Shown here: positions 179 to 61,341 of the stretch, one piece after another | Position numbering within the stretch: position 1 is the first letter of the stretch | How the letters are laid out: every line of letters begins with the position of its first letter | Assembly: GCA_963829055.1 (NCBI GenBank) | Contig: CAWHHI010000016.1 | Coordinates: forward strand, 160,001-224,000 | Length of the DNA stretch: 64,000 bases | Direction: 5' to 3' | Source of the DNA: an uncultured Gemmatimonadaceae bacterium | Lineage (GTDB): Bacteria > Gemmatimonadota > Gemmatimonadetes > Gemmatimonadales > Gemmatimonadaceae | Program-made: the position numbers and the translations under genes | Notes under the pieces: model-generated | Told to the model about the DNA's origin: nothing | What the model saw: the letters and a program-made list of their open reading frames with translations, nothing else | Database searches by the model: none

Positions 179-1725
179 GTACGCGCCTCGCTGGGCTGAA
201 CGACAGTGGCGGGAGCCGCGTGCGTGAACGACGAGAGAATTCCAGTAGCCATTGTGAGTGTGGTTCCGATCAGAACGTACCAGGGCCAGGCAATGGACGC
301 GAATGGTGCGAGCGGTTCGGCGAGTGCGGGAACCCACGTGCCGATCTGCCGAGCAAATACCACGAAGCTCATCGCGGCAATGCCGACGCTCATCCCGGTG
401 ATCGCGTCGCGCTGGTTGGCGCGCGCCCAGAATACGCCGAGAAAAAACCCGCCGAGCAGTCCGCCGTACGTGAACGACGCGATGCCGAGCGCGACCACGA
501 CGACCGGTGTGCCGTTCTCGCGGAACAGTAGCGCGCCTAACGTCAGAACGGTACCCCAGACGAGCGCGAAGAGCTTGCTCATGCGCAACGTCTCTGGTGA
601 GTCGGCGGAACGCTTCGTCAGCGGCAGGTAGATGTCGTGCGTGGTTGCCGCGGCCAGCGAGTTGATTGCACCGGAGTGCGTGCTCATCGTCGCGGCAACG
701 ACAGCGGCGATGATCAGCCCGACGAGTCCGGGCGGCATGCGCGCAATGATGAACGACGGAAAGATCTCGTCGGTGGTCGTGAAGGGGCGTCCCTGATAGA
801 ACGCCCAGAGTCCCAGACCGATGACCAGGAAGAGCGTGAACTGCACGAATACGACGAGCCCACTGCCAATGATTGCCTTCTGCGCATCTTTGAGATTCCG
901 CGCGGACAGCAACCGCTGCACGATGAGCTGATCGGTCCCGTGCGACGCCATCGCCAGGAACGCGCCGCCGATGAGACCCGCCCAGATGGTGTGGGCGCGA
1001 TCGAATCCCCAGTAGGTGTCGATCACGCGCAGTTTGCCCGCGGTGCTCGCCTGATCGACGATCGACGACCAGCCGCCAGTCACGGCGTGGCCGAGCAGCA
1101 CGATCGCGGACAATGCGCCAAGCAGGTAGATGCTCGCCTGCAGCAGCTCGGTCCACACGACCGCCTTCATGCCACCGCGGTACGTGTACAACACGGTGAG
1201 CGCGCCGAGGATGAGAATCGCGACGGGCATCACGAGCCCCTTGTTGCTAACGGTCGGGCTGATGATGAGCGCGATCGGAATGGCGGTCGCGAACACGCGC
1301 ACCGAATCGGCGAGTGCGCGCGTCACCATGAACACGATCGACGTGAAACGCCGCGCGCCAATACCGAACCGCTGCTCGAGCAAGGCGTAGGCGGTGACCA
1401 TCTTGCCCTTGAAGTACCGCGGCAGGAGGACAGTCGCGACGACGATGCGGCCAAGGATGTAGCCAGCGACGATCTGAAGGAATCCAAGATTCCCGGCGCC
1501 CGGCGCCGACCCGTAGGACAGTCCCGGTGTGCTGATGAATGTGAGCGCGCTCGTTTCCGTCGCCACGATCGACAGCATCAGTGCCCACCATGGGATGCTG
1601 TGGCTGGCGACGAAATAGTCCGTTGCGTTTTTCTGTTTGCGCCCGAGATACATCCCGAGCGCGGTGACGCCGGCGAGGTAGATGATGAGGACGAACGCGT
1701 CGAGCCAGGTGAAGGTGCTCGTCAC
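175..1725 (-). CDS. Sodium:solute symporter (SSS) family transporter
   Basis: 516 aa with many TM segments; motifs DYFVAS..IPWWA..SIVATETSALTFISTPG, GGMKAVVWTE and DQLIVQRLL. Confidence 0.92.
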   Translation of the reverse strand: MTSTFTWLDAFVLIIYLAGVTALGMYLGRKQKNATDYFVASHSIPWWALMLSIVATETSALTFISTPGLSYGSAPGAGNLGFLQIVAGYILGRIVVATVLLPRYFKGKMVTAYALLEQRFGIGARRFTSIVFMVTRALADSVRVFATAIPIALIISPTVSNKGLVMPVAILILGALTVLYTYRGGMKAVVWTELLQASIYLLGALSAIVLLGHAVTGGWSSIVDQASTAGKLRVIDTYWGFDRAHTIWAGLIGGAFLAMASHGTDQLIVQRLLSARNLKDAQKAIIGSGLVVFVQFTLFLVIGLGLWAFYQGRPFTTTDEIFPSFIIARMPPGLVGLIIAAVVAATMSTHSGAINSLAAATTHDIYLPLTKRSADSPETLRMSKLFALVWGTVLTLGALLFRENGTPVVVVALGIASFTYGGLLGGFFLGVFWARANQRDAITGMSVGIAAMSFVVFARQIGTWVPALAEPLAPFASIAWPWYVLIGTTLTMATGILSSFTHAAPATVVQPSEART

Positions 1726-1764
1726 GCGCCGACCTCGTGGTCGGCGAAGGCGCTCGAGTGGGCG

Positions 1765-3771
1765 TCAGGCAACGACATACGCCTCCATCGCGAAGTACTC
1801 CGCGAGACCGAGCCGGTCGAGCGTGGCCGCCGTGTCCTTGTTGCGCTGTTCGACGCGCTGCCAGAATTCGCGCTCATCCTGCCCGGGGAAGGGTGCCGAG
1901 TCTTTCTGGGACTGATGCTTGAAGATCGCCTGGATCTTGAGTCGCAACTCCTCCTGCGACATGGGAACGAGGTACGTCGCGTCCGTGACCGGCCATTCCT
2001 GCCACGCGCCGCGATAGAGCCAGACCTCGGGGCCTGGGCCGCGCGGACCTGGATCGGTAGCTCGCCGCTGCTGGGTTGTCGCCGCGTCGGCTGCGGGTTC
2101 CCGGTTTCCCGTTCCCGCTCGACGAAGCTCGTCCAAGGCTCCGTCGATGGCCTCCTTGCACATTCGGTGAGTGCCGTGCGGATCGGAGAGGTCGCCGGCG
2201 ACGAAGATGATGTCCGGGTCGATCTCTTCGAGCAGCGCGCGCACGATCGCCACATCCGGCGGGCCGATCGGATCCTTCGCCACCTTTCCCGTCTGGTAGA
2301 ACGGCAGGTTGAGGAACCTCGCATGTTCCCGCGTTAGGCCCATGACCTCCAGTCCGCTCACCGCTTCCGCCTCGCGGATCACGCGCTTGATGTCCTGAAT
2401 CTCCGGAATGTCGACGTCGCCGGCGCGCTTGTCGCGCAGGAAGTCGTGCACCTTCTTCGCCAACGCACCGACTGCGTCCGCATCGACCTTGCCTTCGGCG
2501 GCAAGTCGCTCGAGGAAGTCCACGTAGCGCCGCACGTCGTGATCGAACACGGCGATGTTGCCGCTCGTCATGTAGGCGACGGTAATGTGATTCTCGTTCT
2601 CGACGAGCTTCCGAAGGATGCCGCCCATCGAGATGACGTCGTCGTCCGGATGCGGCGAGAAGCAGATGATGCGCTTCTCGCGCGGCAGTTTGCTCTTGCC
2701 GCGGATCTTCGCTCCGAGTGTGTTGAAGACCTCGCCGTTCACGGCGCCCGGCGTGCCGTAGCGCGCGACGAGCGACGACATCTTGTGTTCCGCGTAATCG
2801 CGCTGCGTGAGCTTGAGGATGCCGCGGCCCACTGTCGTGGACAGCCAGACGACTCCGCGTACCGTCAGAGCGGGCGTCCAGTCCACCTGGTCGAGGAGCC
2901 AGGGAGTCGCGATGCGCGTGAGGTCGGCGCCGGCCGCACGGTCGACGTAGAACGTCGTGTTGCCGTGGCCCTGCAGGAACGTGGCGGCAACCTCGACGTC
3001 GGTCTCTCCCTCCACCGCGCGCCTAACGACTGGTGCCTTGTGCTCGCCGGTCGCGAGAATGGCGATCTCACGGGCTTCGAGAATCGTCGCGATGCCCATG
3101 GTCAGCGCTTCGCGTGGCACGAAGTCCTCGCCGAAGAAATCGGCGGCGGCATCGCGACGAGTGATGGCGTCGAGCATCACGAGCCGCGTTCGGCTCTCGA
3201 CGCCCGACCCGGGCTCGTTGAAGCCGATGTGGCCCGTCTTGCCGATGCCGAGAATCTGGAAGTCGATCCCACCCGCCCGAGCGATCGAGTCCTCATAGCG
3301 ACGACACTCATCATCGACGTCCTCGCGCGCGACGTCGCCGCGTGGCACGTAGACGTTGCGGGGGTCGATATCGATGTGCGAGAACAGATTCTCCCACATG
3401 AAGCGCCTGTAGGAGTGGATGCTGTCCGGGCGCATGGGGTAGTACTCGTCGAGGTTGAACGAGACCACTCCTTCGAAGCTCAGCCCCTCTTCGCGATGCA
3501 TGCGAATCAGCTCGCGGTACACACCGATGGGGGTCGAGCCGGTCGCGAGGCCGAGCACGGTGCGCTCACCCGCCGCCTGCTTCTCCGTGATCAGCGTCGC
3601 GATGCGATTGGCGACGAGCCGAGCGATGTGCTGGTGGTCGTCGACGACGATCGTGCGGATCTTCTCGAGGGACGACGCTGCCGGGTGCGCTAAACGAGAA
3701 GGCCCGCGACTCGTGGAAGGATCGCGGGCCTCGCTCGAAACGCCGGCGTCCAGATGGGCAACCGGACTCAC
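1765..3771 (-). CDS. nagB: Glucosamine-6-phosphate deaminase with C-terminal PIG-L/LmbE-like deacetylase domain
   Basis: VLGLATGSTP, FNLDEYYP and GIGKTGHIGFNEPGS, followed by FSPHPDDDVISMGG and DLSDPHGTH. Start codon uncertain. Confidence 0.92.
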   Translation of the reverse strand: MSPVAHLDAGVSSEARDPSTSRGPSRLAHPAASSLEKIRTIVVDDHQHIARLVANRIATLITEKQAAGERTVLGLATGSTPIGVYRELIRMHREEGLSFEGVVSFNLDEYYPMRPDSIHSYRRFMWENLFSHIDIDPRNVYVPRGDVAREDVDDECRRYEDSIARAGGIDFQILGIGKTGHIGFNEPGSGVESRTRLVMLDAITRRDAAADFFGEDFVPREALTMGIATILEAREIAILATGEHKAPVVRRAVEGETDVEVAATFLQGHGNTTFYVDRAAGADLTRIATPWLLDQVDWTPALTVRGVVWLSTTVGRGILKLTQRDYAEHKMSSLVARYGTPGAVNGEVFNTLGAKIRGKSKLPREKRIICFSPHPDDDVISMGGILRKLVENENHITVAYMTSGNIAVFDHDVRRYVDFLERLAAEGKVDADAVGALAKKVHDFLRDKRAGDVDIPEIQDIKRVIREAEAVSGLEVMGLTREHARFLNLPFYQTGKVAKDPIGPPDVAIVRALLEEIDPDIIFVAGDLSDPHGTHRMCKEAIDGALDELRRAGTGNREPAADAATTQQRRATDPGPRGPGPEVWLYRGAWQEWPVTDATYLVPMSQEELRLKIQAIFKHQSQKDSAPFPGQDEREFWQRVEQRNKDTAATLDRLGLAEYFAMEAYVVA

Positions 3772-3786
3772 GCTGGATTTACCTCG

Positions 3787-13398: not shown

Positions 13399-14790
13399 TT
13401 GGCACGTATCGATGTAGTGATGCCCCAGATGGGGGAGTCGATCGCCGAAGGGACAATGTCCCGTTGGCTGAAGAAGGTTGGCGACTCGGTGAAGCGCGAC
13501 GAGCCGATCTTCGAGATCTCGACAGACAAGGTAGACGCGGAGATTCCGTCGCCGACCTCCGGCGTGCTGGCCGAGGTGCTGGTGACGGAAGGACAGACGG
13601 TTCCGGTCCAGACGATCGTTGCCCGCATCGAGACGGAGGCAGGGGCGGTAGCCGCGGCGCCTGCGGCCGCCGCTCCAGCGCCAGCGGCGTCGTCGGCAGC
13701 AGCGCCTGTGTCGGCTGCTGGAGCGAGCGGGGGGCCCCCCCCGAAAAGCGAATCTACGGCGAAACCGGCCGCCGTCTCGCATCCCGCCAGCGCGACCACA
13801 GCCATACCGCCGCAGACACCTGGCAGGTCCTCAGCCGGCAACGGCGAGTCAATGGAAGATCGACTCCGCACCAAGTCGTCTCCGCTCGTACGAAAGATCG
13901 CCGCCGAGCACGGCATCGAGATTGCCGGCCTCCAAGGCAGCGGCATCGCCGGCCGCGTGACCAAGCGCGACATCATGCAGGTGATCGAATCCGGCGCCGC
14001 AGTCGAAGCCGCGCCGCGAGCCGCGCCGTCGATGCACGCACCCGCGGGCGTCGAGCAGCACGGCCCGATGCCCGAGCCGTGGGCCGGTGACATCGTCGAG
14101 CCAATGTCGCGCATCCGCGCGCTCACGGCCGAGCACATGAGGCTCTCGCGTCGCACGAACGCGCACGTGACGTCGTTCTTCGAAATCGACCTCACACGTG
14201 TCGCGCGCATCCGCGCGAAACTCCGGGCCGACTTCGAGAAGCAGTCCGGCGAGAAGCTCACCTACCTGCCGTTCATTCTCACCGCCGTTACGGCCGCGCT
14301 CAAGCAGTTCCCGATTCTCAATGCGGCAGTTGCCGGCAACTCGGTCATCTACCGCAAGCAGTACAACCTCGGAATCGCCGTCGCGCTCGACTGGGGACTC
14401 ATCGTTCCCGTCATCAAGCGCGCCGACGAGCTGTCGCTTGTCGGCCTAACGCGGCAGTTGAACGACCTCGCGACGCGCGCTCGCGCGAAAAAGCTCCGTC
14501 CCGAGGAAGTACAGGACGCCACCTTCACTATCACGAATCCCGGCGTCTTCGGCTCCCTCATGGGCACTCCGATCATCCCCGTGCCGACGACCGCGATCCT
14601 CGGGCTCGGCGCGATCGAGAAGCGACCGAAGGTCATCACTGGGCCCGATGGGGAGGACACCATCGCCATCAGGACCTGTGCGTTCTTCTCGCTCTCGTTC
14701 GATCACCGCGTGATCGACGGATCGGTCGCCGATCAGTTCCTCGCGACTGTGAAGCGCACGTTGGAGACGTACGCCGAAACAGGCGCATAA
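13399..14790 (+). CDS. Dihydrolipoamide acyltransferase (E2)
   Basis: Lipoyl domain EISTDKVDAEIPSP, E3-binding SPLVRKIAAEHGI, catalytic SFDHRVIDG; TTG start. Confidence 0.93.
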   Translation: MARIDVVMPQMGESIAEGTMSRWLKKVGDSVKRDEPIFEISTDKVDAEIPSPTSGVLAEVLVTEGQTVPVQTIVARIETEAGAVAAAPAAAAPAPAASSAAAPVSAAGASGGPPPKSESTAKPAAVSHPASATTAIPPQTPGRSSAGNGESMEDRLRTKSSPLVRKIAAEHGIEIAGLQGSGIAGRVTKRDIMQVIESGAAVEAAPRAAPSMHAPAGVEQHGPMPEPWAGDIVEPMSRIRALTAEHMRLSRRTNAHVTSFFEIDLTRVARIRAKLRADFEKQSGEKLTYLPFILTAVTAALKQFPILNAAVAGNSVIYRKQYNLGIAVALDWGLIVPVIKRADELSLVGLTRQLNDLATRARAKKLRPEEVQDATFTITNPGVFGSLMGTPIIPVPTTAILGLGAIEKRPKVITGPDGEDTIAIRTCAFFSLSFDHRVIDGSVADQFLATVKRTLETYAETGA

Positions 14791-17014: not shown

Positions 17015-18040
17015 GTGGCTACGCGTAATCCTGAAACGCTCGTGATCATTGGCTCCGGCCCGTCGGCGTGGACGGCCGCGATCTATGCCGCCCGCGCGAA
17101 CCTGCGTCCACTGGTGTACGAGGGCGAACCGTCGCGCGAGATGATTCCCGGCGGCCAACTCATGTACACGACCGAGGTCGAGAACTACCCCGGCTTCGTC
17201 GACGGCGTCACCGGAACCGCCTTGATGCACACGCTCCGCGAGCAGGCGCTCCGGTTCGGAACACGGATCGAGCAGGAGTTCATCGCATCGGTCGATTTCG
17301 GCCGTCACCCGTTCCGCCTCAAGCCGAACTACAGCGACGAGATCGAGGCGCTGGCCGTGATCGTGGCGACGGGCGCGCGGGCGAACTGGATTGGCGTGCC
17401 TAACGAAGAGCGCCTCGCGCAGCTGGGCGGCGGCGTTTCGGCGTGCGCCGTTTGTGATGGCGCGTTGCCCGCGTACCGCAATAAGGTGCTCGCCGTCGTC
17501 GGCGGCGGTGACTCGGCGATGGAGGAGGCGCTGTATCTCACGAAGTTCGCGAATGAAGTGCGGCTCATCCATCGCCGCGACGAATTGCGCGCGTCCAAGA
17601 TCATGGCCGACCGCGTTCTGAATCACCCGAAGATCCGCATCGTCTGGAACACACGCGTAACCGAGGTGCTCGGCTACGACGTGATCGAGGGCCTTCGGGT
17701 CGAGAACACGGTCACGCACCACGTGTCCGACATGACGGACATTGGTGGGCTGTTCGTCGCCATCGGCCACACGCCTAACACCGCCTTCCTCGGCGGTCAG
17801 GTCGATCTCACGCCGCACGGCTACATTCGCACGCCGAGGGCGTGGCGCACGGCGACGACGGTGGACGGTGTGTTCGCCGCCGGTGACGTGATGGACGACT
17901 ACTATCGTCAGGCGATCACGGCGGCCGGCACAGGCTGCATGGCGGCGCTCGAAGCCGAGCGGTGGCTCGCCCACCACGGGCTGGGCGAGTCGCCAGTCCT
18001 GGAAACGGCCGAAGCGCCGGTGAGAGCCGGTGGTGAGTGA
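17015..18040 (+). CDS. trxB: Thioredoxin-disulfide reductase
   Basis: IIGSGPSAWTAAIYAARA, GVSACAVCDG, GGGDSAMEEA and YRQAITAAGTGCMAA. Confidence 0.95.
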   Translation: MATRNPETLVIIGSGPSAWTAAIYAARANLRPLVYEGEPSREMIPGGQLMYTTEVENYPGFVDGVTGTALMHTLREQALRFGTRIEQEFIASVDFGRHPFRLKPNYSDEIEALAVIVATGARANWIGVPNEERLAQLGGGVSACAVCDGALPAYRNKVLAVVGGGDSAMEEALYLTKFANEVRLIHRRDELRASKIMADRVLNHPKIRIVWNTRVTEVLGYDVIEGLRVENTVTHHVSDMTDIGGLFVAIGHTPNTAFLGGQVDLTPHGYIRTPRAWRTATTVDGVFAAGDVMDDYYRQAITAAGTGCMAALEAERWLAHHGLGESPVLETAEAPVRAGGE

Positions 18041-22154: not shown

Positions 22155-22624
22155 ATGGCTCAAGAGAAAAAGAGGACGACCGCCAGATAGTCGCGCGGAA
22201 CAAGCGCGCGCGCCACGACTACCACATTCTGGATAGTTGGGAGGCGGGCCTCGTGCTGACCGGAACCGAGGTGAAGTCGTTGCGCGACGGCAAGGCGACG
22301 ATGGCGGACGCGTATGCCTTGGTGAAGGACGGCGAAGTGTTTCTGCTCAACCTGCACATCTCGCCGTACGAAAAAGGCAACCAGTTCAACCACGAACCGA
22401 CGCGAACGCGGAAACTGTTGCTACACCGGAAGGAGATCCGTCGGTTGATTGGATCGGTCGAGCGGCAGGGCCTCACGCTGATTCCGCTCGAGTTGTACTT
22501 CCGCGGAGGAGTGGCGAAGGTGAATATCGCGTTAGGCAAGGGCAAGAAGTTGCACGACAAGCGCGCGGACGACCGCAAGAAGACAGACGAGCGCGACATG
22601 GCGCGCGTGGCGCGCGTGCGATGA
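22155..22624 (+). CDS. smpB: SsrA-binding protein (apparent 1-nt loss in the A-run near 22167 puts ATG 22155 out of frame)
   Basis: RNKRARHDY, EAGLVLTGTEVKSLR, RKLLLHRKEI and GKGKKLHDKR. Confidence 0.93.
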
Positions 22625-24731: not shown

Positions 24732-25453
24732 GCACGACTCCGATCGTCGCGTTGGACGTTCCCTCGGCCGACGACGCGCTCGCTGTCGTTCGGACGCTAG
24801 GAGAGCGGTGTCGATTCTACAAAATCGGCAACGAGCTCTTTACCGCGGCGGGTCCGAGCGTTGTCGAACGTGTGCGAGATACCGGCGCGCGAGTGTTTCT
24901 CGACCTCAAGCTGCACGACATCCCCAACACCGTGCGCGGCGCAGCGCGGTCGGCGGCGTCACTCGGCGCGAGTCTGCTCACGGTGCATGGCGTCGGGGGA
25001 ACCGAGATGGTCTCCGCTGCAGTTGAAGGAGCAGGGAATCAGTTGGGAATCCTGGTTGTTACCGTGCTGACATCGTTCGATGATCGCACATTAGGCGAGG
25101 CGACGGGCCGGCCGGAGATCTCAGCGTCGGCGGAGGTGGCGCGACTAGCTGACGTCGCGGCGCACGCGGGGGCGCATGGGATCGTGTGCTCGGGCGCCGA
25201 GGCGAGTGCAATGCGCGAGCGGTTCGGCGAGCGTCTCGCGCTGCTCATCCCCGGGATTCGCATGCGCGGCGGCGCCGTTCACGATCAGCGCCGAGTTGTT
25301 ACACCGGCTGAAGCGGCCGTTGCCGGCGCGCGTTACATCGTGGTCGGGCGGGCGGTGACTGGAGCGGCGGACCCGGCCAGCGCGATGGACGCGGTGATGG
25401 CGGAGCTCGAGTCGGACGGACACTGCACAACGAATACCGTGTCCCTTGCATAG
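24728..25453 (+). CDS. pyrF: Orotidine-5'-phosphate decarboxylase
   Basis: IVALD, FLDLKLHDIPNTV, VTVLTS, PGIR and VVGRAV. Confidence 0.95.
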   Translation: MSTTPIVALDVPSADDALAVVRTLGERCRFYKIGNELFTAAGPSVVERVRDTGARVFLDLKLHDIPNTVRGAARSAASLGASLLTVHGVGGTEMVSAAVEGAGNQLGILVVTVLTSFDDRTLGEATGRPEISASAEVARLADVAAHAGAHGIVCSGAEASAMRERFGERLALLIPGIRMRGGAVHDQRRVVTPAEAAVAGARYIVVGRAVTGAADPASAMDAVMAELESDGHCTTNTVSLA

Positions 25454-25518
25454 CGGCTGTAAGCCCGTTAATCTGAGTGTCTTGGCCGAAATTATCTTTG
25501 TTTTTACTGGAGCGCCCT

Positions 25519-25635
25519 GTGAAAGTTCGCAGCAGCGTTAAGCCGATCTGTGAGCACTGTCGAGTCGTGAAGCGCAGCGGCGTCACGCGCATCATCTGCA
25601 AGCGCAACCCCAAGCACAAGCAGCGTCAAGGTTAG
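25519..25635 (+). CDS. rpmJ: 50S ribosomal protein L36 (Zn-ribbon type); missing from the ORF track
   Basis: GTG start; [38 protein letters not shown]. Confidence 0.96.
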
Positions 25636-25637
25636 AT

Positions 25638-26015
25638 ATGGCTCGAATTGCTGGCGTTGACCTCCCGCGTGACAAGAAGGTCGAGATCGGTCTCACGTAC
25701 ATCTATGGGATCGGCCGTTCCATTGCACGCAGAATTCTGCAGACCACGGGCGTGAGCTCGGATCTGCGCGTCCGTGATCTCAATGACGCCGACGTGAATC
25801 GGCTGCGGCAGGCGATCGAACGCGATTATCGCGTCGAGGGCGCTCTGCGCACCGAGGTGGCGATGAACATCAAGCGATTGATGGACATCGGCTCCTATCG
25901 GGGCATCCGCCACCGTCGTGGTCTGCCGGTGCGCGGTCAGCGGACGCATACGAATGCCCGTACGAAGAAGGGTCCACGCCGCGCAATCGCCGGCAAGAAG
26001 AAGGTGACCAAGTAG
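25638..26015 (+). CDS. rpsM: 30S ribosomal protein S13
   Basis: [10 protein letters not shown]...[23 protein letters not shown]. Confidence 0.98.
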
Positions 26016-26019
26016 TCAT

Positions 26020-26397
26020 ATGGCAACTGCGAAGAAGACCAAGCGCGTGATCGAGGCGGAGGGAGTCGCCCACATCAGCGCGACGTTCAACAATACGACG
26101 ATCACGATCTCCGACACGCACGGGAACACCGTGTCCTGGGGGTCGTCAGGCAAGGCCGGCTTCAAGGGATCCAAGAAGTCGACGCCATTCGCCGCGACGG
26201 TCGCCGCGGAGCAGGCAGCGCGAGAAGCGATGTCGCTCGGCGTTCGGCGCGTGCACGTGCGCGTTCAGGGTCCCGGGTCGGGACGCGAGTCGGCCATTCA
26301 GGCGCTCGCGTCCGCTGGCTTGCAGGTGAAGTCGATCAAGGACGTGACGCCGATCCCGCACAACGGCTGCCGTCCTCCCAAGCGACGGAGAGTCTAA
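26020..26397 (+). CDS. rpsK: 30S ribosomal protein S11
   Basis: [23 protein letters not shown] and [18 protein letters not shown]. Confidence 0.98.
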
Positions 26398-26400
26398 CCA

Positions 26401-27036
26401 ATGTCACGTTACACCGGTCCCAGCTGCCGTCAGTGCCGCCGCGAAGGGACGAAGCTGTTCTTGAAGGGAACGAAGTGCTTCACCGAGAAGTGCCCGGTCG
26501 AGCGTCGTCCGTATGCGCCGGGTCAGCACGGCCAGAACACGGCGCGTCGCCGCAAGTCGTCCGAGTATTCCAAGCAGCTTCGCGAGAAGCAGAAGATCAA
26601 GCGCATCTACGGCGTGAGCGAGCGGCAGTTCCGTAACACGTTCGAGCGTGTGGCGTCGCTCCCCGGCATCACTGGCCACAACCTTCTCGCAGCACTCGAG
26701 AGCCGGTTGGACAACGTGGTGTATCGCATGGGTTTCGCCGCGAGCCGTAAATCAGCGCGTCAGCTCATTCGTCACCGCCACGTCGAGATCAACCAGCACA
26801 CCGTCGACGTGCCGAGCTATCTCGTCGATCCCGGCGAGGAAGTGCGCGTTCGCATGAAGTCGCGTGAGATGGTCGCGATCATGGCCGCGATGGATCAGGC
26901 GACCCGTGGCGCTCCGCTCTCGTGGATCGCGGTGGATCGCGACACGTTCAGTGGCCGGATGCTCGAGCGTCCGCAGAGGACCAGCATTCCGATCGCCGCA
27001 CAGGAGCAACTCGTAGTCGAGTTGTACTCTAAGTAA
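26401..27036 (+). CDS. rpsD: 30S ribosomal protein S4 (Zn-binding type)
   Basis: MSRYTGPSCRQCRREG..KC, LESRLDNVVYRMGF and VVELYSK. Confidence 0.98.
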   Translation: MSRYTGPSCRQCRREGTKLFLKGTKCFTEKCPVERRPYAPGQHGQNTARRRKSSEYSKQLREKQKIKRIYGVSERQFRNTFERVASLPGITGHNLLAALESRLDNVVYRMGFAASRKSARQLIRHRHVEINQHTVDVPSYLVDPGEEVRVRMKSREMVAIMAAMDQATRGAPLSWIAVDRDTFSGRMLERPQRTSIPIAAQEQLVVELYSK

Positions 27037-27039
27037 GCC

Positions 27040-27114
27040 GGGAACCGGGAACGAGGAACTGGGAAACTGACGCACTGCGCCGTTCCCGGTTCCCAGGTCC
27101 CAGTTCCCGTTTTT
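27040..27114. repeat. Degenerate (GGGAACN)x4 / (NGTTCCC)x4 inverted heptamer array followed by a T-run; possible terminator
   Basis: gggaacc gggaacg aggaact gggaaac ... cgttccc ggttccc aggtccc agttccc gttttt. Confidence 0.75.
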
Positions 27115-27215
27115 GGTCGGGGCCCTAGTCCCCATACGAGCTCACCGCGCGCTAGGGGCGGGGTGAGGCGTTGCCGAGGCGATGTCTCGGTATGACCGTT
27201 CAAAACAGCGAATAC

Positions 27216-28286
27216 ATGGCACAAGTCATCGATCTTACCGGGTTGGTTCGTCCGCAGCTGGTCGAAGCTACCAAGCGCGACGACAACACGAACATCGCGG
27301 AGTTCCGCCTCCAGCCGCTGGAGCGTGGCTTCGGCCACACGCTCGGCAACGCGATGCGGCGCATGCTGCTCTCGTCGCTGCGCGGCTCCGCCGTTTGGGG
27401 CTTCCGCATTGACGGCGTCGTTCACGAGCACCAGACCATCCCTGGGGTGGTCGAGGACGTGCACCAGATCATCGCGAACCTGAAGACGCTCACGATGTCG
27501 CTCGCCGATGACCTCGACGAGGCGATTCTCCGCATCTCCAAGTCCGAAGCCGGCCCGATTACGGCAGCCGACATTCAGGACCAGAGCGGCGTGAAGGTCA
27601 TCGACCAGCGTCACCACCTGTTCACGCTCCAGGACGATCGCGACATCAACGTCGAACTGTACGTGAACAAGGGCCGCGGGTACATCGAAGCCGACCAGCA
27701 CGTGATCGACCGTGGACTTCCGATCGATCTCGTTCGCATCGATTCGATCTACAATCCGGTTCGTCGTGCGAACTTCACGGTGGCCGAGACGCGCGTTGGT
27801 CAGCGCACCGACTACGACCGCCTGATGCTGACGGTCGAGACGAACGGCACCATCACGCCGGAAGAGGCAGTGAGCTACGCCGCCGCGCTCGCGCAGACGC
27901 ACTTCCAGTACTTCGCGGGCTTCGGCTCGCACGCGTCGGCACCGGTGGGTGGTGGCGGCGAGCAGTCCACCGGCGATGCGCACCGGTTGGCGGAGCTCTT
28001 CCGCACGCCTATCGACGACCTCGAGTTGTCGGTGCGGTCGGTCAACTCGCTCAAGAACTCGAATATCCGCTCGCTGGGTGACCTGGTTCGCCAGACCGAA
28101 AGTCAGATCCTGCAGGTCAAGAATTTCGGGAAGAAGTCGCTGCAGGAGATCGCCGATCTCCTCGAGCGCGAAGGCTTGAATTTCGGGATGCGCTGGGACG
28201 AGAACGGCGAGGGCGTGCGGATCACCGATTGGGGAACGCCGCCGAGCCGCGCCGCCGCCAACGCGCCTGACGACGAAGAGGAGTAA
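27216..28286 (+). CDS. rpoA: DNA-directed RNA polymerase subunit alpha
   Basis: QPLERGFGHTLGNAMRRMLLSS, RVGQRTDYDRL, LELSVRSVNSL and NFGKKSL. Confidence 0.98.
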   Translation: MAQVIDLTGLVRPQLVEATKRDDNTNIAEFRLQPLERGFGHTLGNAMRRMLLSSLRGSAVWGFRIDGVVHEHQTIPGVVEDVHQIIANLKTLTMSLADDLDEAILRISKSEAGPITAADIQDQSGVKVIDQRHHLFTLQDDRDINVELYVNKGRGYIEADQHVIDRGLPIDLVRIDSIYNPVRRANFTVAETRVGQRTDYDRLMLTVETNGTITPEEAVSYAAALAQTHFQYFAGFGSHASAPVGGGGEQSTGDAHRLAELFRTPIDDLELSVRSVNSLKNSNIRSLGDLVRQTESQILQVKNFGKKSLQEIADLLEREGLNFGMRWDENGEGVRITDWGTPPSRAAANAPDDEEE

Positions 28287-28291
28287 GACCA

Positions 28292-28648
28292 ATGCGTCAT
28301 CGCAAGGCAGGACGGCAGCTACGTCGCACGAGCGAGCAGAAGCTCGCGTTGATGCGCAATCTCGCCACGTCACTCATCGAGTATGGCGCGATCGAGACCA
28401 CCGAGGCGAAGGCGAAGGAGCTGCGTCCGTTCGTGGAGAAGCTCATCACGAAGGCGCGCACCGGTACGCTGCATTCGCGTCGTCTCGCTGGACGTCACGT
28501 CCAGAAGCGTGAAGCCGCAGACAAGTTGTTCCAGGAACTTGGGCCACGCTTCGCCAAGCGTCCTGGTGGCTACACGCGCATTCTCAAGACTGGTCACCGC
28601 AAGGGTGACGGCGCCGAGATGGCGCGCATCGAGCTGATCGAGAGCTGA
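28292..28648 (+). CDS. rplQ: 50S ribosomal protein L17
   Basis: [25 protein letters not shown] and [10 protein letters not shown]. Confidence 0.98.
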
Positions 28649-28653
28649 GACCC

Positions 28654-28872
28654 ATGCCTATCAACCGCAACCGATGCTACTCCTGCGATCGCGGAGTCGC
28701 CTTCGGCAATAATGTTTCGCACGCGAACAACAAGACGCGTCGCACGTGGAAACCGAACCTGCAGGTCGTCCGCGTGGTCGTCGGTGAGCGCGTTCAACGC
28801 GTGAAGGTCTGCGCGCGATGCCTGCACGCCGGCAAAGTGCAGCGAGCCCCGCGCGGAGCGAGGGTCGCCTGA
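28654..28872 (+). CDS. rpmB: 50S ribosomal protein L28 (Zn-ribbon type)
   Basis: CYSC...[20 protein letters not shown]...VCARCL. Confidence 0.95.
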
Positions 28873-28895
28873 ACCCGAACGTGTCCGAAGAAAAC

Positions 28896-28923
28896 GGGAG
28901 CTCCTTCGGGGGCTCCCTTTTTT
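28896..28923 (+). terminator. Intrinsic terminator after rpmB
   Basis: GGGAGCTCC-TTCG-GGGGCTCCC stem-loop followed by TTTTTT. Confidence 0.9.
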
Positions 28924-29940: not shown

Positions 29941-33240
<3,300 letters not shown>

Positions 33241-33257
33241 GCGCGACGGCCGGGACG

Positions 33258-45464: not shown

Positions 45465-46576
45465 GCGCAATGCAGATGTCGATGGGCCGCTTCGAGGAGC
45501 GACTGGGCGCGCGAGCACGGCGCGAGCGCCAGCCGCTGTCGTGCCTATTCGAGATCACGCCTCGGTGTAACCTCCGCTGCAAGTTCTGCTACGTCGCCCT
45601 CGATCCATATCAGGGCCCGTACCTCGGCACCGACCAGGCGTGTCGTGTGCTCGACGTCATCGAGCAGGCGGGGGTGCTGTGGCTGACGCTGACGGGTGGG
45701 GAGGTGTTCTCACGACGCGACTTCCCGACCATCTACGAATACGCGCTGACCAAGGGGCTCCTCGTCACGATCTATACGAACGCGACGATGGTCACCGAGT
45801 CCGTGGCGCAGCTCCTCACCGACCGGCCGCCGTTCTCGGTGGAGGTCAGCATCTACGGGGCGGACGCCGAGCACTACGAGGCGACGACGCAGATTCCCGG
45901 CTCATTCGCGCGGTTCGAGCGCGGGATCGCGCGACTGCAGGCCGCGGGCGTGCCCCTGCTGATGAAATGCCCGATCAGCACATTGACCGCGGATCACGTC
46001 GCGGCGCTCGTGCAATGGTGTACCGACCGCGCTTTACCATTCAAGGCGGACCCGGTTATCGACGCGCGCCACGATGGCGGGCAGCAGCCGACTCTCTACC
46101 GCATCGCGCCTCGCGGCGTCGTCGAGCTTCGCGATGAGCTGTACGCGTTGAGTCACGGCGCGCCGCGGCCTGCTGGACCGCTTCCCGAATGTTCAGTCCG
46201 CGGCGACGCGGATGGCCCTGAAGAGCTGTACACCTGCGGTGCCGGGCGTATAGCGTTCTTTGTCGACGCACTCGGAAACGCCAGCCATTGCGTGATCGAT
46301 CGCGAGCCGTCATTTCCGATTCTCGAAACGCCGTGGAACGAGCTCTGGACGCGCATGGGAGCGTGGGTTACGCAGCCGTTGCCGACCGACGCGTCGTGCA
46401 GCGGATGCTCGCTGCGCGGCGGGTGCAGCAACTGCCCGGCGCGATCGAGGCTCGCGACCGGAAGTCCGTTCCTGAAGGATGAATACCAGTGTGACATCAC
46501 ACACGCCATTCATGGGCTTCCGCCGGCGCGCCACGAGCATCGCGCGCCTCGCCCACTCGCAGCGTGTACCGCCTAA
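45461..46576 (+). CDS. Radical SAM/SPASM peptide maturase
   Basis: EITPRCNLRCKFCY (CxxxCxxC), LTGGE and YTNA; SPASM motifs CGAG...HC and CSGCSLRGGCSNCPA...C. Confidence 0.92.
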   Translation: MSAMQMSMGRFEERLGARARRERQPLSCLFEITPRCNLRCKFCYVALDPYQGPYLGTDQACRVLDVIEQAGVLWLTLTGGEVFSRRDFPTIYEYALTKGLLVTIYTNATMVTESVAQLLTDRPPFSVEVSIYGADAEHYEATTQIPGSFARFERGIARLQAAGVPLLMKCPISTLTADHVAALVQWCTDRALPFKADPVIDARHDGGQQPTLYRIAPRGVVELRDELYALSHGAPRPAGPLPECSVRGDADGPEELYTCGAGRIAFFVDALGNASHCVIDREPSFPILETPWNELWTRMGAWVTQPLPTDASCSGCSLRGGCSNCPARSRLATGSPFLKDEYQCDITHAIHGLPPARHEHRAPRPLAACTA

Positions 46577-46599
46577 CGTGACGTGCCGAGGCTAGCACC

Positions 46600-46831: not shown

Positions 46832-47046
46832 ACATCGCCGGTCCGGGGCGGGACCGTCTGACGGCTCGATCGTCATCCACGACGCCCTCGGCCATCACGT
46901 TTCCCCGCGACACCACCACGAGATCGTTGCCCGATCGATCCAGAACGTCCGTCGATGAACACATCGACGGTCGCGCGACGGTTGCGGCTGCACACTGGCC
47001 TAGGTAAGCTATTGCGGCCACTCAACTTCAACGAACTGGAGCACGC

Positions 47047-55798: not shown

Positions 55799-57985
55799 AT
55801 GACGTCGACGGCGCCCACCCCGATCACCATTCCGGGCTGGACCAGCCCCGCCACACCCCTGCGCGAGGGGCTCGACCAGGAGCTGCTCCTCCGCGCGTAC
55901 AAGTACAGCGAACGCGCGCATGCCGGCCAGACGCGGTCGTCCGGCGAGCCCTACGTGTCGCACTGCGTCGAGGTCGCGCACATCCTGGCCGACCTGCACC
56001 TCGACTCCGTCACGGTCGCGAGCGGCCTCATTCACGACGTCGTCGAGGACACCGCGATCACGGTCGCCGACGTCGAGCAGGAGTTCGGGAAGGAGATCGC
56101 GCAGATCGTCGACGGGCTGACGAAGATCGGAAACCTGCCGCTCAACTCGACGCAGGAACGACAGGTCGAGAACTACCGGAAGCTGCTGCTGTCCATCGCG
56201 AAGGATGTGCGGGTCATCCTGATCAAGCTCGCCGACCGACTGCACAACATGCGCACGCTCGACTGGCTGCCGCCGGAGAAGCGCCGCCGCATCGCGCAGG
56301 AAACGCGCGACCTGTACGCGCCGCTCGCGCACCGCTTCGGTATGGCGAAGATGCGGTGGGAGCTCGAGGACCTGGCGTTCAAGCATCTCGAGCCGGATGA
56401 CTACCGCTCGCTCGCGAAGCTCGTGGCGCAGAAGCGCGGCGAGCGCGAGGACCTCATCGCGCGCATGCGCGATCCGCTCGAGCGTTCGCTCAAGAGCGCG
56501 GGCATCAAGGACGTGGACGTCACGGGACGGCCGAAGCATCTCTGGTCGATCTTCAAGAAGATGCAGAAGCGCGACAAGCCGTACGACGAGATCTACGACC
56601 TGCTCGCCATCCGGGTGCTCGTGAACAGCGTTCCCGACTGCTATCACACGTTAGGCGTGATTCACGACGGGTGGACGCCGCTGCAGGAGCGCATCAAGGA
56701 TTACATCGCGCAGCCGAAGTCGAACGGCTACCAGTCGCTGCACACGACGGTGTTCGGGCCGTCGCGGCAGCTGTTCGAGATTCAGATCCGTACGCGGGAG
56801 ATGCATCGCACCGCGGAGTTCGGCATCGCGGCGCACTGGCTGTACAAGGGCGGCAACGAGAAGTCCGATGAGCTGGATCGCCACCTGGCGTGGTTCCGTC
56901 AGGTGCTCGAGGTGCAACTGGACGCCAAGACGCCTGACGAGTTCCTGGAATTCCTCAAGCTCGATCTCTTCCAGGACGAGATCTTCGTCTTCACGCCCAC
57001 GGGCGATGTCATTCAGCTTCCGAAGGGCGCGACGCCGATCGACTTCGCGTTCGCGGTGCATACGGAAATCGGGTTGCACTGTGCTGGGGCGAAGGTGAAC
57101 GGCCGCATTGCGCCGCTCTCGCGCCAACTCAAGAACTCGGAGACGGTCGAGATCATCCGGTCCGCGAACGCACGACCGAGCCGGGACTGGCTCGCTCACG
57201 TGCGCACCGGTCGCGCACGGCACAAGATCCGGCAGTGGCTCCGGCACGAAGAGCACGCCACGTCCGCCAAGCTCGGACGCGAGATTCTCGAGCGCGAGCT
57301 CAAGCGTCGTCGACTGGCGAAGCCGGAGGATGCAGAGCTCGAGGCGGCTGCGAAGGCCTTCAACCTGAACGACGCCAATCACCTCATCGCGTCGATCGGC
57401 CAGGGCGATCTCAACATCGGGCAGGTGTTGAATGCCATGCGACCGGACCTGGAGACGTCGGCCGAGCATCAGTCGAAGCCGACGGCCATCGAGCGTCTGG
57501 TCGAACGGATGCGTGGGACACCGAAGGGCGTTCGCATTCAGGGCGCGGATGGGTTGATGGTCCGCTACGCGCAGTGCTGTCAACCGGTTCCCGGCGATAC
57601 TGTCGTCGGCTACGTGACGCGCGGGCGCGGCGTGAGCATCCATCGTGGCGACTGTCCGAATCTCCTGATGCTCGCGCACGAGCCGGAACGACGTCTCGAG
57701 ATCGACTGGCAGCAGCAGGAGGGCGAGCGCTTCATCGTTAGGCTCGTGCTCGAGGGCTCGGATCGGCGCGGCCTGTACGCGGACATCGCCGGCGCCGTGT
57801 CCGGTGCAGGGACCGACATCCGCAGCATGGAGCTCAAGACCGTCGACGGTCGTGTGAGCGGCTCCGCCCTCGTCGAGGTCGAGAACCTCGCGCACCTGCA
57901 GAAGATCATCAAAGCCGCTCGGCGTGTGAAAGGCATTACGGAAGTCGCTCGTCGTGAGCGCATCTCCACTGACGACGACGCGTAA
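55799..57985 (+). CDS. rel: Bifunctional (p)ppGpp synthetase/hydrolase (long RSH)
   Basis: HD motif IHDVVEDT, KLADRLHNMRT, YQSLHTT, TGS domain ATPIDFAF, and CC plus ACT domains. Confidence 0.95.
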   Translation: MTSTAPTPITIPGWTSPATPLREGLDQELLLRAYKYSERAHAGQTRSSGEPYVSHCVEVAHILADLHLDSVTVASGLIHDVVEDTAITVADVEQEFGKEIAQIVDGLTKIGNLPLNSTQERQVENYRKLLLSIAKDVRVILIKLADRLHNMRTLDWLPPEKRRRIAQETRDLYAPLAHRFGMAKMRWELEDLAFKHLEPDDYRSLAKLVAQKRGEREDLIARMRDPLERSLKSAGIKDVDVTGRPKHLWSIFKKMQKRDKPYDEIYDLLAIRVLVNSVPDCYHTLGVIHDGWTPLQERIKDYIAQPKSNGYQSLHTTVFGPSRQLFEIQIRTREMHRTAEFGIAAHWLYKGGNEKSDELDRHLAWFRQVLEVQLDAKTPDEFLEFLKLDLFQDEIFVFTPTGDVIQLPKGATPIDFAFAVHTEIGLHCAGAKVNGRIAPLSRQLKNSETVEIIRSANARPSRDWLAHVRTGRARHKIRQWLRHEEHATSAKLGREILERELKRRRLAKPEDAELEAAAKAFNLNDANHLIASIGQGDLNIGQVLNAMRPDLETSAEHQSKPTAIERLVERMRGTPKGVRIQGADGLMVRYAQCCQPVPGDTVVGYVTRGRGVSIHRGDCPNLLMLAHEPERRLEIDWQQQEGERFIVRLVLEGSDRRGLYADIAGAVSGAGTDIRSMELKTVDGRVSGSALVEVENLAHLQKIIKAARRVKGITEVARRERISTDDDA

Positions 57986-58155: not shown

Positions 58156-60216
58156 ATGCCTCGCGCCGAATTCGTCCTCCAAGCCCCTTTCGAGCCCGCG
58201 GGCGATCAGCCAAAGGCCATCGCCGAGCTGACAGCGGGGCTCGAGCGCGGCGACCGATTCCAGACGCTGCTCGGAGTCACCGGCTCCGGCAAGACGATGA
58301 CGATGGCGAACGTCATCAAGCAGTACGGACGGCCGACGCTCGTGCTGTCGCACAACAAGACGCTCGCGGCGCAGCTGTACGGCGAGTTGAAGGGCTTCTT
58401 CCCGAACAACGCCGTCGAGTACTTCATCTCGTACTACGACTACTATCAGCCCGAGGCGTACGTCCCCTCGAGCGATACGTACATCGAGAAGGATGCGTCG
58501 ATCAACGAGGACATCGATCGACTCCGGCTGCGGGCGACATCGAGTCTCATGGAGCGCGATGACGTCGTCATCGTCTCCACCGTCTCCGCCATCTACGGCT
58601 TGGGCGACCCGATCGAATACCGCGAGCGCATGGTCAGTCTGCAGAAGGGGCAGACGATTCCGCGCAACGAGATCCTGCGCGCCCTCGTCGGTATTCAATA
58701 CAACCGAAACGACGTCGCGTTCGAGCGCGGCACGTTCCGCGTTAGGGGTGACACCGTCGAGATTCTCCCCGCCTACGAAGAGCAGGGGGTTCGCGTCGAG
58801 CTGTGGGGCGACGAGATCGAGCGGATCTCGAAGATCAATCCGATCACGGGCGAGACGATCGCGGTGCTCGAGCGCGCGGCGATCTACCCAGCGAAGCACT
58901 TCATCACGTCTCGCCCGACGCTCGAACGAGCGGTCGGCGCAATTCGCCAGGAGCTCGGCGAACGGCTCGAAGTGCTGCGCCGCGATGGGAAGCTGCTCGA
59001 GGCGCAACGGCTGGAGTCTCGCACGAACTTCGACATCGAGATGATGATGGAGATCGGCACGTGCGCGGGCATCGAGAACTACTCGCGGCACCTGTCGGGT
59101 CGTGTGGCGGGAGAACGGCCGGCGTGTCTGTTCGACTATTTCCCCGAGGACTTCCTCGTCGTCGTCGACGAGTCGCACGTGACGCTGCCGCAGATCCGCG
59201 GTATGTACAACGGTGACCGTGCGCGAAAGCTCACGCTCGTGGACTATGGGTTCCGCCTGCCGAGCGCGCTGGATAACCGCCCGCTCGTGTTCGACGAGTT
59301 TCTCGCGCTGACGCCGCGTGCCGTGATGGTGAGCGCGACGCCGGCGGAGCTGGAGCTCCAGCTGTCCGAGGGCGTCGTCGTCGAGCAGATCATCCGTCCG
59401 ACGGGGCTGCTGGATCCGGAGATCGAGATCCGCCCGGTGCGCGGACAGGTCGACGACCTTCTGAACGAGATCCGCATCCGCGAGCGGCGCGGCGAGCGCG
59501 TGCTGGTTACGACCCTCACCAAGCGCATGTCGGAGGATCTGACCGACTACCTGCAGCAGATGGGTGTCCGCGTTAGGTACATGCACTCCGACATCGACGC
59601 CATCGAGCGCATGGAGATCGTGCGCGGTTTGCGACTGGGCGAGTTCGACGTCCTGGTTGGCATCAACCTGCTCCGCGAAGGCCTCGACATGCCCGAGGTG
59701 TCGCTGGTGGCGATCCTCGATGCCGATCAGGAGGGCTTCCTGCGCAGTGATCGCTCGCTGATCCAGACCGTCGGCCGCGCGGCGCGACACGTCTCGGGGC
59801 GGGCGATCTTCTACGCCGATCGTATGACGGGCTCGATGGAGCGCTGCATCCAGGAGACGAACCGCCGTCGCGAGACGCAGCGGCTGCATAACGAGGCAAC
59901 CGGTGTCGTCCCGCGTGGCGTGGAGAAGAGCATCGAGCAGGTGCGGTTCATCACGCGCGTCGCGGACGCGAGAGAAGGCCGAGAGGAACGCGAGCGCAAC
60001 GCGAAGAAGGTGGCCGAGTCGGCCGCGTCGTACGGTGAAGAGGATCGGGCGACGACGATCGAGCGCCTCGAGCGCGAGATGCGGGAGGCCGCGGCGAACC
60101 TCGACTTCGAGACAGCCGCTCGGCTCCGTGACCAGCTGTTCGAGCTCAAGGCCAAGGCGGCCGGCAACGTTGCGCGCTCGCGCGGCGCGTTTGCGGACAT
60201 CCGGGCGCACAGCTGA
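58156..60216 (+). CDS. uvrB: Excinuclease ABC subunit B
   Basis: [31 protein letters not shown] and [11 protein letters not shown]-terminal UVR domain. Confidence 0.98.
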
Positions 60217-60680: not shown

Positions 60681-60681
60681 C

Positions 60682-61341
60682 GTGATCGCGCTCGCCCTCG
60701 AGGCATCGACCTACACGGGCAGCGTCGCCGTCATTCGCGACGGCGTCGTCATCGCCGAAGAGACGACCGCTATGCGGGGCGAGCGCGAAGAGCGACTCAT
60801 GCCGGCTGTCGCGGCGTCACTCGAGCGGGCCGGTGTCGCGCCTAACGCGATCGAGCGGGTCGTCTGTGGTGCTGGGCCGGGAAGCTTCACGAGTCTGCGC
60901 ATTGCCGGGTCGATCGCCAAGGGACTCGCCCTCGCGTCGCGGGCGACGCTTCATCCCGTGTCGTCGCTGCTGCTGATCGTTGCCGGCGCGCGCGTGTCAC
61001 TCGTACCAGGACACTACGTGGCGGTGCTCGACGCGATGCGTGGCGACGTGTTCGCCGCGGCATTTTCGGTGACCGATTCGTCCATCGTACCCATCTCGGA
61101 GACGACTATCGTAGCGCGGGCAGAGCTCGCGGCGTTCGCGCGCGAGCACGCAGGACGATTGATCGGACCGGCCGAGGAGTTGGCGGTGGCGCCGCATGCA
61201 CGCGGAGCGGCGGTCCTCGGGGAATTGGTGCCGTGGCCGGAAGCCGCATCGGTGGCGGCGTGGGAGCCGACATACGGGCGACTGGCGGAAGCCCAGGTGA
61301 AGTGGGAAGCTGCGCACGGACGTGCGTTGACCCCGGGATGA
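60682..61341 (+). CDS. tsaB: tRNA threonylcarbamoyladenosine biosynthesis protein
   Basis: LALEAST, GPGSFTSLRI, DAMRGDV and EPTYGR. Confidence 0.92.
   Translation: MIALALEASTYTGSVAVIRDGVVIAEETTAMRGEREERLMPAVAASLERAGVAPNAIERVVCGAGPGSFTSLRIAGSIAKGLALASRATLHPVSSLLLIVAGARVSLVPGHYVAVLDAMRGDVFAAAFSVTDSSIVPISETTIVARAELAAFAREHAGRLIGPAEELAVAPHARGAAVLGELVPWPEAASVAAWEPTYGRLAEAQVKWEAAHGRALTPG

Follow-up and report, generated by a model that had tools for sequence, protein, structure and literature searches.

A dispersed octamer of Gemmatimonadaceae genomes that shares the spelling of the integron attC core: a possible uptake-sequence-like tag

Introduction

Two bacterial families are known to take up DNA in a sequence-specific way. 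The tags are DNA uptake sequences (DUS) in Neisseriaceae, where ComP is the receptor, and uptake signal sequences (USS) in Pasteurellaceae. Both are described as short non-palindromic words that occur about once per kilobase on both strands, are conserved in variable places, are rare in recently acquired DNA, fall into lineage dialects and occur in co-evolved temperate phages. Here we describe a word, CGTTAGGC, that is dispersed over a 64,000-nucleotide stretch of DNA from an uncultured Gemmatimonadaceae bacterium (GenBank assembly GCA_963829055.1, contig CAWHHI010000016.1, positions 160,001 to 224,000; hereafter the window) and over the whole of the source genome.

Three other kinds of short sequence are relevant. 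Integron attC sites carry the core consensus GTTRRRY at R' and RYYYAAC at R''. HIP1 of cyanobacteria (GCGATCGC) is described as an octamer found about once per kilobase in several reading frames, conserved beyond codon needs and loose at its first and last base; its function is unproven. Chi and KOPS are over-represented asymmetric octamers that are strand-biased (PMC5861425).

Results

The source genome (G000) is a 7.78 Mb assembly of 20 contigs, in which the window is C16:160001-224000. Its SecA is most similar, at 70-89% identity, to proteins recorded as Gemmatimonadaceae. Its gene set consists of our own calls (8,292 genes, 79% coding), and the assembly contains frameshifted genes. Exact counting in the window returned 30 GTTAGG on the + strand and 16 CCTAAC, with 37 of the 46 extending to the 7-mer GTTAGGC, just as a first-pass annotation had counted by eye. 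Thirty-one copies match the full CGTTAGGC, so that the consensus gains one base at the 5' side. The annotation overlooked this leading C; it also did not remark that the word is identical to the attC core of integrons, that copies keep apart at short range and that phages carry it, as described below. Its expectation of 7-8 copies was too high (dinucleotide shuffles give 1.98 ± 1.30, maximum 6 in 100), and the excess is therefore larger than it claimed. The control words GTTAGC, ATTAGG and CTTAGG are scarce in the window, with 3, 2 and 0 occurrences on the + strand. Called genes contain 42 of the 46 sites. Genome-wide, the octamer, which is non-palindromic (reverse complement GCCTAACG) and has the core GTTAGG, is present in 5,004 copies against 102 expected under an order-2 model, or 1 per 1.55 kb; under the same model GTTAGG occurs 7,103 times against 512 expected. 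All 20 contigs carry the word, at 75-122 GTTAGG per 100 kb.

About 68% of the copies (3,402 of 5,004) lie inside genes. The in-gene count of 3,392 is far above amino-acid-preserving codon shuffles, which give 106-127 copies when codons are drawn globally and 159-183 per gene; against a motif-masked codon usage null the excess is 131-fold (3,191 vs 24). Four reading frames are used, Leu-Gly (1,342), Pro-Asn (960, some stops included), Leu-Thr (617) and Val-Arg (473). GGC follows 1,654 of 2,942 TTA codons, and 58% of the Pro-Asn sites able to spell the word do so. The Pro-Asn dipeptide is itself over-represented (3,613 vs 2,610), and the word contains 276 of 1,041 TAA and 226 of 2,151 TAG stop codons. 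In the window, the rare-codon placements proposed at first pass (TTA GGC, GTT AGG in uvrB, CCT AAC in trxB and CTA ACG in the E2 gene) hold, as do the stop codons of carB (TAG, 33236) and the radical SAM gene (TAA, 46572). The TTA GGC codons assigned to smpB are present in the open reading frame (ORF) at 22064-22624; the name smpB is that annotation's label only. The ribosomal protein operon is empty, as it had said, and short proteins rich in lysine, which stand in roughly for the ribosomal proteins, carry 0.21 GTTAGG per kb vs 0.91.

Variants define the tolerance of the sequence. Against the motif-masked null in genes, CGTTAGGT is enriched 100-fold, TGTTAGGC 58-fold and CGTTAGGG 27-fold; AGTTAGGC, GGTTAGGC, CGTTATGC and CGTTAGGA reach 9- to 14-fold, and CGTCAGGC and CGCTAGGC about 2.5 times expectation. 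The loose positions are 1 and 8.

Conservation between species was measured in 190 kb aligned to four same-genus genomes (78.5% identity). Ungapped orthologous sites are identical for 37 of 71 copies taken from G000 and 37 of 65 taken from the relatives (52-57%), vs 18-22% in three control sets (p = 5e-8). Sites flanked by gaps, 28 from G000 and 17 from the relatives, were set aside and read by eye; many are intact islands within poor alignment. Insertion footprints were sought in these 45 alignments and none was found, so we rejected that origin. Lost sites mostly differ by 2-4 bases and read as the usual preferred codons. An artefact or a codon effect is rejected by the presence of the word on all contigs, by the codon nulls and by its enrichment in all six same-genus genomes. 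Because of the codon nulls and the cross-species conservation, the data support a DNA-level signal kept against codon habit. This part of the function proposed at first pass stood. The stretch was partly recovered in 21 of 24 environmental runs, with about 957 strain-level differences, and close strains occur in soil, rhizosphere and sediment.

The two orientations of CGTTAGGC in G000 are equally frequent (2,547/2,457). Word strand does not correlate with GC skew in 20-kb windows (rho 0.07, p = 0.19), nor orientation with gene direction. Copies avoid their neighbors: relative to random placement, pair density falls to 0.2 below 90 bp, is 0.5 at 150-200 bp and returns to 1 from about 500 bp, with a similar curve in each of the four orientation classes. 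None of six control word sets dips at short range. The variants CGTTAGGT, CGTTAGGG, TGTTAGGC and CGTTATGC join in the exclusion with the perfect word, and CGTCAGGC and CGTTCGGC do not. The exclusion was repeated in two further genomes (G189 and G014). No clear long-range period was seen on three contigs. Because the spacing, on a scale of about 250 bp, is orientation-free, the reader of the word probably sees double-stranded DNA, with one copy serving a few hundred bases.

The longest word-free stretches of G000 are islands of 48, 37 and 32 kb. The two on contig C6 have 70-73% GC and lie at both contig ends; for these reasons they are either recent acquisitions or products of mis-binning. The foreign origin of word-free islands is judged from GC or gene content alone. 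Within the window, a polysaccharide locus at 33147-49313 (nucleotide-sugar enzymes, a Wzc-type kinase and the radical SAM gene) has copies about as densely as the host genome, which suggests that it has long been resident in the genome.

We tallied the word in 201 family genomes, including the unpublished G013, G050 and G097, none of which is in the rich class. Sixty genomes hold at least 100 copies per Mb (maximum 1,340), 12 hold 25-100 and the remaining 129 lie below 25; genome size is greater in the rich class (4.8 vs 3.9 Mb). Four adjacent proteins at a single locus, that of ComEC, gave a tree of 41 genomes. One clade of ten genomes, including G000, is entirely word-bearing, and rich genomes stand beside poor ones in the supported clades (G055,(G085,G048)), (G064,G119), (G070,(G053,G038,G046)) and ((G063,G010),G008,G047). 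This interleaving means that the word was either repeatedly gained or repeatedly lost. Lineages also differ in the variants they tolerate. Changes of the last base and CGTTATGC are tolerated in G000, G196, G014, G082 and genus g53. G189 has no CGTTAGGT against 84 perfect copies, but its first base is loose, and genus g60 has no TGTTAGGC against 60 perfect copies. By analogy, such lineage-specific tolerance resembles uptake dialects. No other word at tag density was found in 21 genomes with fewer than 60 copies per Mb, sampled at 15-95 kb each. Outside the family, G030, from another family of the same order, was the sole enriched genome among 12 (345 copies in 2.9 Mb).

The word and the attC core share one spelling. 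In poor relatives, the few copies sit in same-strand runs 500-700 bp apart. In the arrays of four such relatives, 43 of 51 attC-like hairpins end in CGTTAGGC, a proportion inflated by the choice of arrays for bearing the word, and 42 of 51 have at their start the complement of TGTTAGGC, which across the genome is the most frequent variant in the first base. The word therefore has the letters of the commonest R' end in this order's arrays, and its top first-base variant is the complement of the commonest R'' end. A shared history of word and core may be inferred from this. The two differ in deployment: copies of the word stand singly, without a partner, and are read in frame in core genes, and at most 89 of the 5,004 in G000 fall in attC-like hairpins, even loosely defined. 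CGTTAGAC, which ends 6 of the 51 hairpins, is not enriched in G000 genes (5 vs 9). The word has no tie to the presence of the integrase IntI, which is found in 36 of 48 word-bearing and 25 of 32 poor genomes (p = 0.79), and the N-terminal domain of IntI shows no rich/poor pattern. On C20 of G000, a small number of true attC-like sites lie close to IntI, downstream of it and on the same strand. Its IntI (L092:14008-14985, corresponding to C20:208008-208985, -) scores 265.7 bits, barely above the cut-off, where most relatives score 340-458; compared by eye with IntI motifs, it presumably lacks the catalytic lysine. A second, N-terminal IntI fragment lies at C4:2850-3239.

A cultured carrier allowed a comparison with a published methylome. 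Gemmatirosa kalamazoonensis KBS708, sampled as four 50-kb stretches (200 kb) of its two megaplasmids, carries 30, 30, 28 and 33 copies. Its single-molecule real-time (SMRT) methylome contains RGATCY, ATGCAC and CCAGN7TCA only (PMC3974934). In the same 200 kb GTTAGGC occurs 145 times and ATGCAC 47 times; the undetected word is threefold commoner than the detected one. A methylase model, and with it the modification target suggested at first pass, is weakened by the absence of the word from the methylome of a carrier strain. RGATCY and ATGCAC show no strong bias in G000. Among five rich genomes a C5 methylase was found in one and the N6/N4 family in two; DndC, Vsr and NucS were found in none of the five. 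An adenine methyltransferase resembling Eco57I/TaqI, about 1,070 residues long, is present in single copy in 79 of 80 family genomes (L703-L735), with intact LDPACGSG and NPPW motifs and a conserved C-terminal region; in the G000 assembly it is in pieces (C8:73551-76758). Its conservation is equal in poor and rich genomes, it follows the species tree, and no alignment column separates the two classes (31 of 33 loci usable). By its sequence it is possibly a family-wide housekeeping methylase. Short-range exclusion also holds in KBS708 (13 pairs below 250 bp vs 25.5 expected), which has no CGTTAGGT; in Gemmatirosa the word is loose at its first base and strict at its last.

By family matches and our own reading, G000 encodes major and minor pilins, PilMNOPQ, PilBTC-like genes, a ComEA-type fragment and ComEC; the assembly breaks several of them into pieces. 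ComEC is present in all 48 word-bearing genomes, a ComEA-type HhH protein in 77 of 80 and PilM in 76 of 80. The pilin encoded next to pilM, PilX, is predicted to consist of a pilin domain and a β-solenoid (pLDDT 90). Its best Foldseek match is ComZ, the DNA-binding tip pilin of Thermus thermophilus (E 1.9e-5, low TM-score); the model aligns with ComZ at Z 9.9 (rmsd 12.1, 254 residues aligned), and the solenoid with ice-binding proteins at Z 15. The ComZ solenoid has likewise been compared to ice-binding proteins, and the accessible text gives no sequence preference for ComZ (PMC6561018). PilX thus has the same predicted plan as ComZ; it differs in being shorter and not basic, with 12-14% identity and no sequence match in the PDB, and its DNA binding is putative. 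Of 19 genomes with at least 160 copies per Mb, 18 encode a full-length PilX (355 residues or more), vs 7 of 18 with fewer than 20. We regard it as a candidate receptor, a lead from modeling that is not sufficient to explain the pattern.

A survey of the pilins of five genomes revealed none specific to rich genomes. PilW has one marginal rich/poor column, in a gappy stretch. A small Cys-bearing gene, C16:790575-790871 (-) in G000, lies between miaB and comEC in 23 of 40 relatives; we take it to be ComFB-like. It was rejected as the reader: it occurs in 17 of 21 bearing and 6 of 19 poor genomes, but G055 and G085 lack it beside ComEC and G119 has it. Upstream of pilM, the minor pilin triplet is tandemly duplicated in L512, L515 and L520 (G112, G089 and G119), two rich genomes and one poor.

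Viral contigs were found by searching for close word pairs in five pattern scans. Among the matches listed, 260 loci above 3 kb, dispersed enrichment is clear in L242/L243, L354/L337, L328, L184, L332 and L671; the remainder are mostly chance pairs or cassette-like arrays. Enriched phage contigs carry the word every 250-400 bp. L242 (portal, terminases, scaffold) carries 31 copies, distributed over both strands of 17 kb; its terminase shares 50% identity with that of a prophage in the poor genome G047, which has 0 copies in 28 kb. L354 and L413 (virion proteins, endolysin) carry GTTAGG every 247-252 bp, more regularly than random (p = 0.002-0.004), and these variants, at 90.5% identity, keep 26 of 27 sites where their flanks predict 14.5. 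Seventy-nine other relatives hold 6 CGTTAGG in 852 kb. L671, a 72%-GC element with a replication initiator and a repressor, has 23 copies in 19 kb and a Gemmatirosa-type variant pattern. The phages likely infect word-bearing Gemmatimonadaceae. The best family match of L354 has 31% identity and occurs in 2 of 301 genomes. Host-level word density surrounds the prophage terminase of G118. A gene transfer agent packaging signal was rejected: the L242 terminase is in 7 of 80 genomes and does not track the word, and no L242 protein was matched in G000. A 21-kb phage-like element of G. kalamazoonensis had no counterpart in the collections searched.

Two further repeats were noticed. A second repeat family of G000, absent from the window, comprises TGTCATTCCGAGCG (456 copies), TGTCATCCCGAGCG (261) and GCTCGGAATGACA (470) and is presumably REP-like. 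On the viral contig L177/L387 (IMGVR_UViG_3300023212_000464, 132-4005; 42% GC), fourteen same-strand copies of the 16-bp GCCGTTAGGCGATGGG lie 100-800 bp apart and form a separate array, perhaps cassette-like.

Table 1. Copies of the word in the window and word-free regions of the source genome
Feature	Position	Strand	Remark
Dispersed (C)GTTAGG(C)	535..60847	both	exact counting
GTTAGG starts	2333, 4692, 5388, 6338, 10135, 10699, 11130, 11352, 13365, 18389, 18742, 18923, 22531, 30459, 33236, 37316, 38291, 38491, 39929, 40695, 42495, 43025, 43538, 44794, 45120, 51789, 56650, 57737, 58741, 59572	+	
CCTAAC starts	536, 3022, 5638, 6878, 14445, 17399, 17774, 24087, 30946, 46572, 50669, 52107, 53820, 54821, 55772, 60841	-	word on -
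Sodium/solute symporter gene	535..542	-	CGTTAGGC as ACG TTA GGC (Thr-Leu-Gly)
E2 acyltransferase gene	14444..14451	-	GGC CTA ACG (Gly-Leu-Thr)
trxB	17398..17405	-	CCT AAC (Pro-Asn); second site 17774
ORF 22064-22624	22530..22537	+	GCG TTA GGC (Ala-Leu-Gly)
Ribosomal protein/rpoA operon	25451..28900	+	0 GTTAGG
carB stop	33235..33242	+	word contains TAG
Radical SAM gene stop	46571..46578	-	word contains TAA
relA/spoT	57736..57743	+	GTT AGG (Val-Arg); same place kept in same-genus relative
uvrB	58740..58747	+	variant CGTTAGGG as GTT AGG (Val-Arg); second GTT AGG 59572
Word-free island	C6:6854-55038		G000
Word-free island	C6:591809-623330		G000
Word-free island	C11:7377-44055		G000

Discussion

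We tentatively read CGTTAGGC as an uptake-sequence-like self tag spread by biased uptake and recombination, a proposal that we hold to be quite possible but a little short of probable. Judged from sequence, it appears to match DUS and USS in all that can be computed, apart from terminator pairs and the scale of spacing. It is asymmetric and over-represented on both strands, conserved beyond its flanks, rare in putatively acquired DNA and accompanied by competence machinery. At 1 per 1.55 kb its density is DUS-like, since it is within the range reported for neisserial DUS, which are reported about every 1,150 nt (PMC2397512). It differs in phylum and sequence, in its length of 8 bp, in the spacing scale of about 250 bp, in the recurrence of the same word in interleaved lineages and in being the attC core; its in-gene share (~68%) exceeds the 34-42% given for DUS in PMC2397512. 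In the mechanism we envisage, a receptor on a type IV competence pilus, for which PilX is a candidate, would prefer double-stranded fragments that carry the word, and tagged alleles would replace untagged ones by recombination, so that the word spreads. The spacing might stem from donor fragments too short to gain anything from a second copy; in Haemophilus, two USS within 100 bp are reported not to raise uptake (PMC7811141).

At its origin the preference was probably for the attC core, a sequence found in every gene cassette. In Vibrio, natural transformation is reported to feed cassettes into chromosomal integrons (PMC12614218). The full chain, in which a reader of the cassette core caused cassette DNA to be selectively taken up or protected and thereby drove the word across the entire chromosomes of several lineages, altering proteins and stops, until phages mimicked it at near-saturating spacing, seems to us unlikely as a whole.

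Several observations weigh against an uptake tag. Close inverted pairs of the word are not in excess in G000, and below 60 bp they are depleted, unlike neisserial DUS, which are described as often forming inverted terminator pairs. The exclusion is weaker in the G196 sample (0.6-0.9 below 250 bp), and its scale of about 250 bp is shorter than the conversion tracts of 1.1-1.7 kb reported for Neisseria in PMC2397512. Core one-off variants are mostly at or below expectation. No report of competence in Gemmatimonadaceae was found in the searchable literature, with subscription journals largely outside it. ComEC is also present in 29 of 32 poor genomes (p = 0.06); competence genes are equally common there and therefore do not explain the patchy pattern. 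The association of PilX length with the word (p = 0.0004) carries no correction for kinship; a full-length PilX persists in seven poor genomes, and in G079 (116 copies per Mb) the protein is short. The phylogeny of PilX matches the species tree, the solenoid domain is not basic, and no column of PilX, PilV, PilQ, PilO, PilN or PilM separates rich from poor genomes beyond permutation. Finally, phage densities are at or above the top of the host range, beyond what uptake alone predicts: 2.1 and 1.8 per kb in L242 and L354 against a host maximum of 1.34 (p ~0.06 each, not significant), and in L671 twice that of a 72%-GC host (p = 0.002), in contigs picked by close pairs. The phage copies are nonetheless compatible with an uptake tag, because temperate Pasteurellaceae phages accumulate USS up to host level (PMC6776037), but they keep an intracellular reader in play.

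Such a reader would be a cytoplasmic, sequence-specific binder of double-stranded DNA that acts over about 250 bp by nuclease shielding, expression licensing, repair loading or DNA compaction, with hosts gaining copies by selection and phages copying the word as self. Orientation-free spacing fits a footprint or range of action. The regular spacing and site retention of L354/L413 beside nearly empty relatives fit it too, as does the contrast between L242 and the empty prophage of G047. Cassette arrays carry the word every 500-700 bp and would therefore be covered by a 250-bp range. Yet word-free host islands of 31-48 kb persist, host copies, on average 1.1-1.5 kb apart, would fail to cover most of the DNA, and no candidate protein was found in our analysis. 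Residence as prophages, as the host-level density near the G118 terminase illustrates, would also give the phage counts, and the link of L354 to a host is tentative. We consider this reader somewhat unlikely, though a serious competitor to the uptake tag. The mutational ratchet proposed for HIP1 would need no benefit at all: a mark or nick at the word would skew mismatch repair toward fixing new copies and restoring old ones, and this would continue until no DNA lay farther than one repair tract from a copy. Saturation, even spacing and looseness at the first and last base are what this model predicts (PMC4390886). Positions 1 and 8 are indeed loose here, the process would act on phages as well, and the family-wide adenine methyltransferase might supply the mark. 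That enzyme is, however, equally conserved in poor genomes, the word is missing from the KBS708 methylome despite its abundance, and the modification and repair enzymes sought in five rich genomes are sparse or absent. HIP1, moreover, shows no short-range exclusion on a Nostoc plasmid (18 pairs below 250 bp vs 12.2 expected in 150 kb, a small and patchy comparator), whereas the Gemmatirosa word does. HIP1 differs from CGTTAGGC further in that the latter is non-palindromic and has no clear long-range period. We judge the ratchet improbable.

Two remaining explanations fare worse. An integron integrase might itself write or use the sites, leaving cassette-insertion scars at secondary sites or keeping decoy boxes for IntI. 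The hairpin ends that share the word's spelling speak for this, as does the insertion of cassettes by IntI at many chromosomal GWT sites, reported in bioRxiv 10.1101/2022.09.11.507474. But IntI is equally common in bearing and poor genomes and its N-terminal domain is patternless, the sites lie in frame in core genes with no insertion signature, the common attC end CGTTAGAC is unenriched, few copies sit in hairpins, and the choice of arrays inflated the match; we think this role very improbable. A polar signal for replication or recombination, such as KOPS or the Chi-like site listed at first pass, would account for a non-palindromic, over-represented octamer that is rare in foreign islands. 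It is largely refuted and hardly credible, given that strand, GC skew and gene direction show no skew (20 contigs, origin and terminus not placed) and that copies in opposite orientation avoid each other as strongly as those in the same orientation, which would be unexpected for a polar signal.

We found no published account of the word in the Gemmatimonad literature, with subscription journals largely outside our searches. If CGTTAGGC is an uptake tag, it would be a third case of sequence-specific uptake, in an abundant soil family. The family offers at least five contrasts between rich and poor sisters, namely G085/G055 vs G048, G064 vs G119, G070 vs G053/G038/G046, G063 vs G008/G047 and G112 vs G041, in which the ways that tags arise, spread and are lost become directly testable, and the identity of the word with the integron cassette core would give an uptake bias a concrete origin. 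A cultured type strain with public SMRT data (GSE55390) carries the word, so that uptake, binding and methylation tests are possible now. The word is also a simple host marker for phages of Gemmatimonadaceae; should its reader act inside the cell, the copying of a host word by phages at 250-bp intervals would suggest a form of self recognition not yet described.

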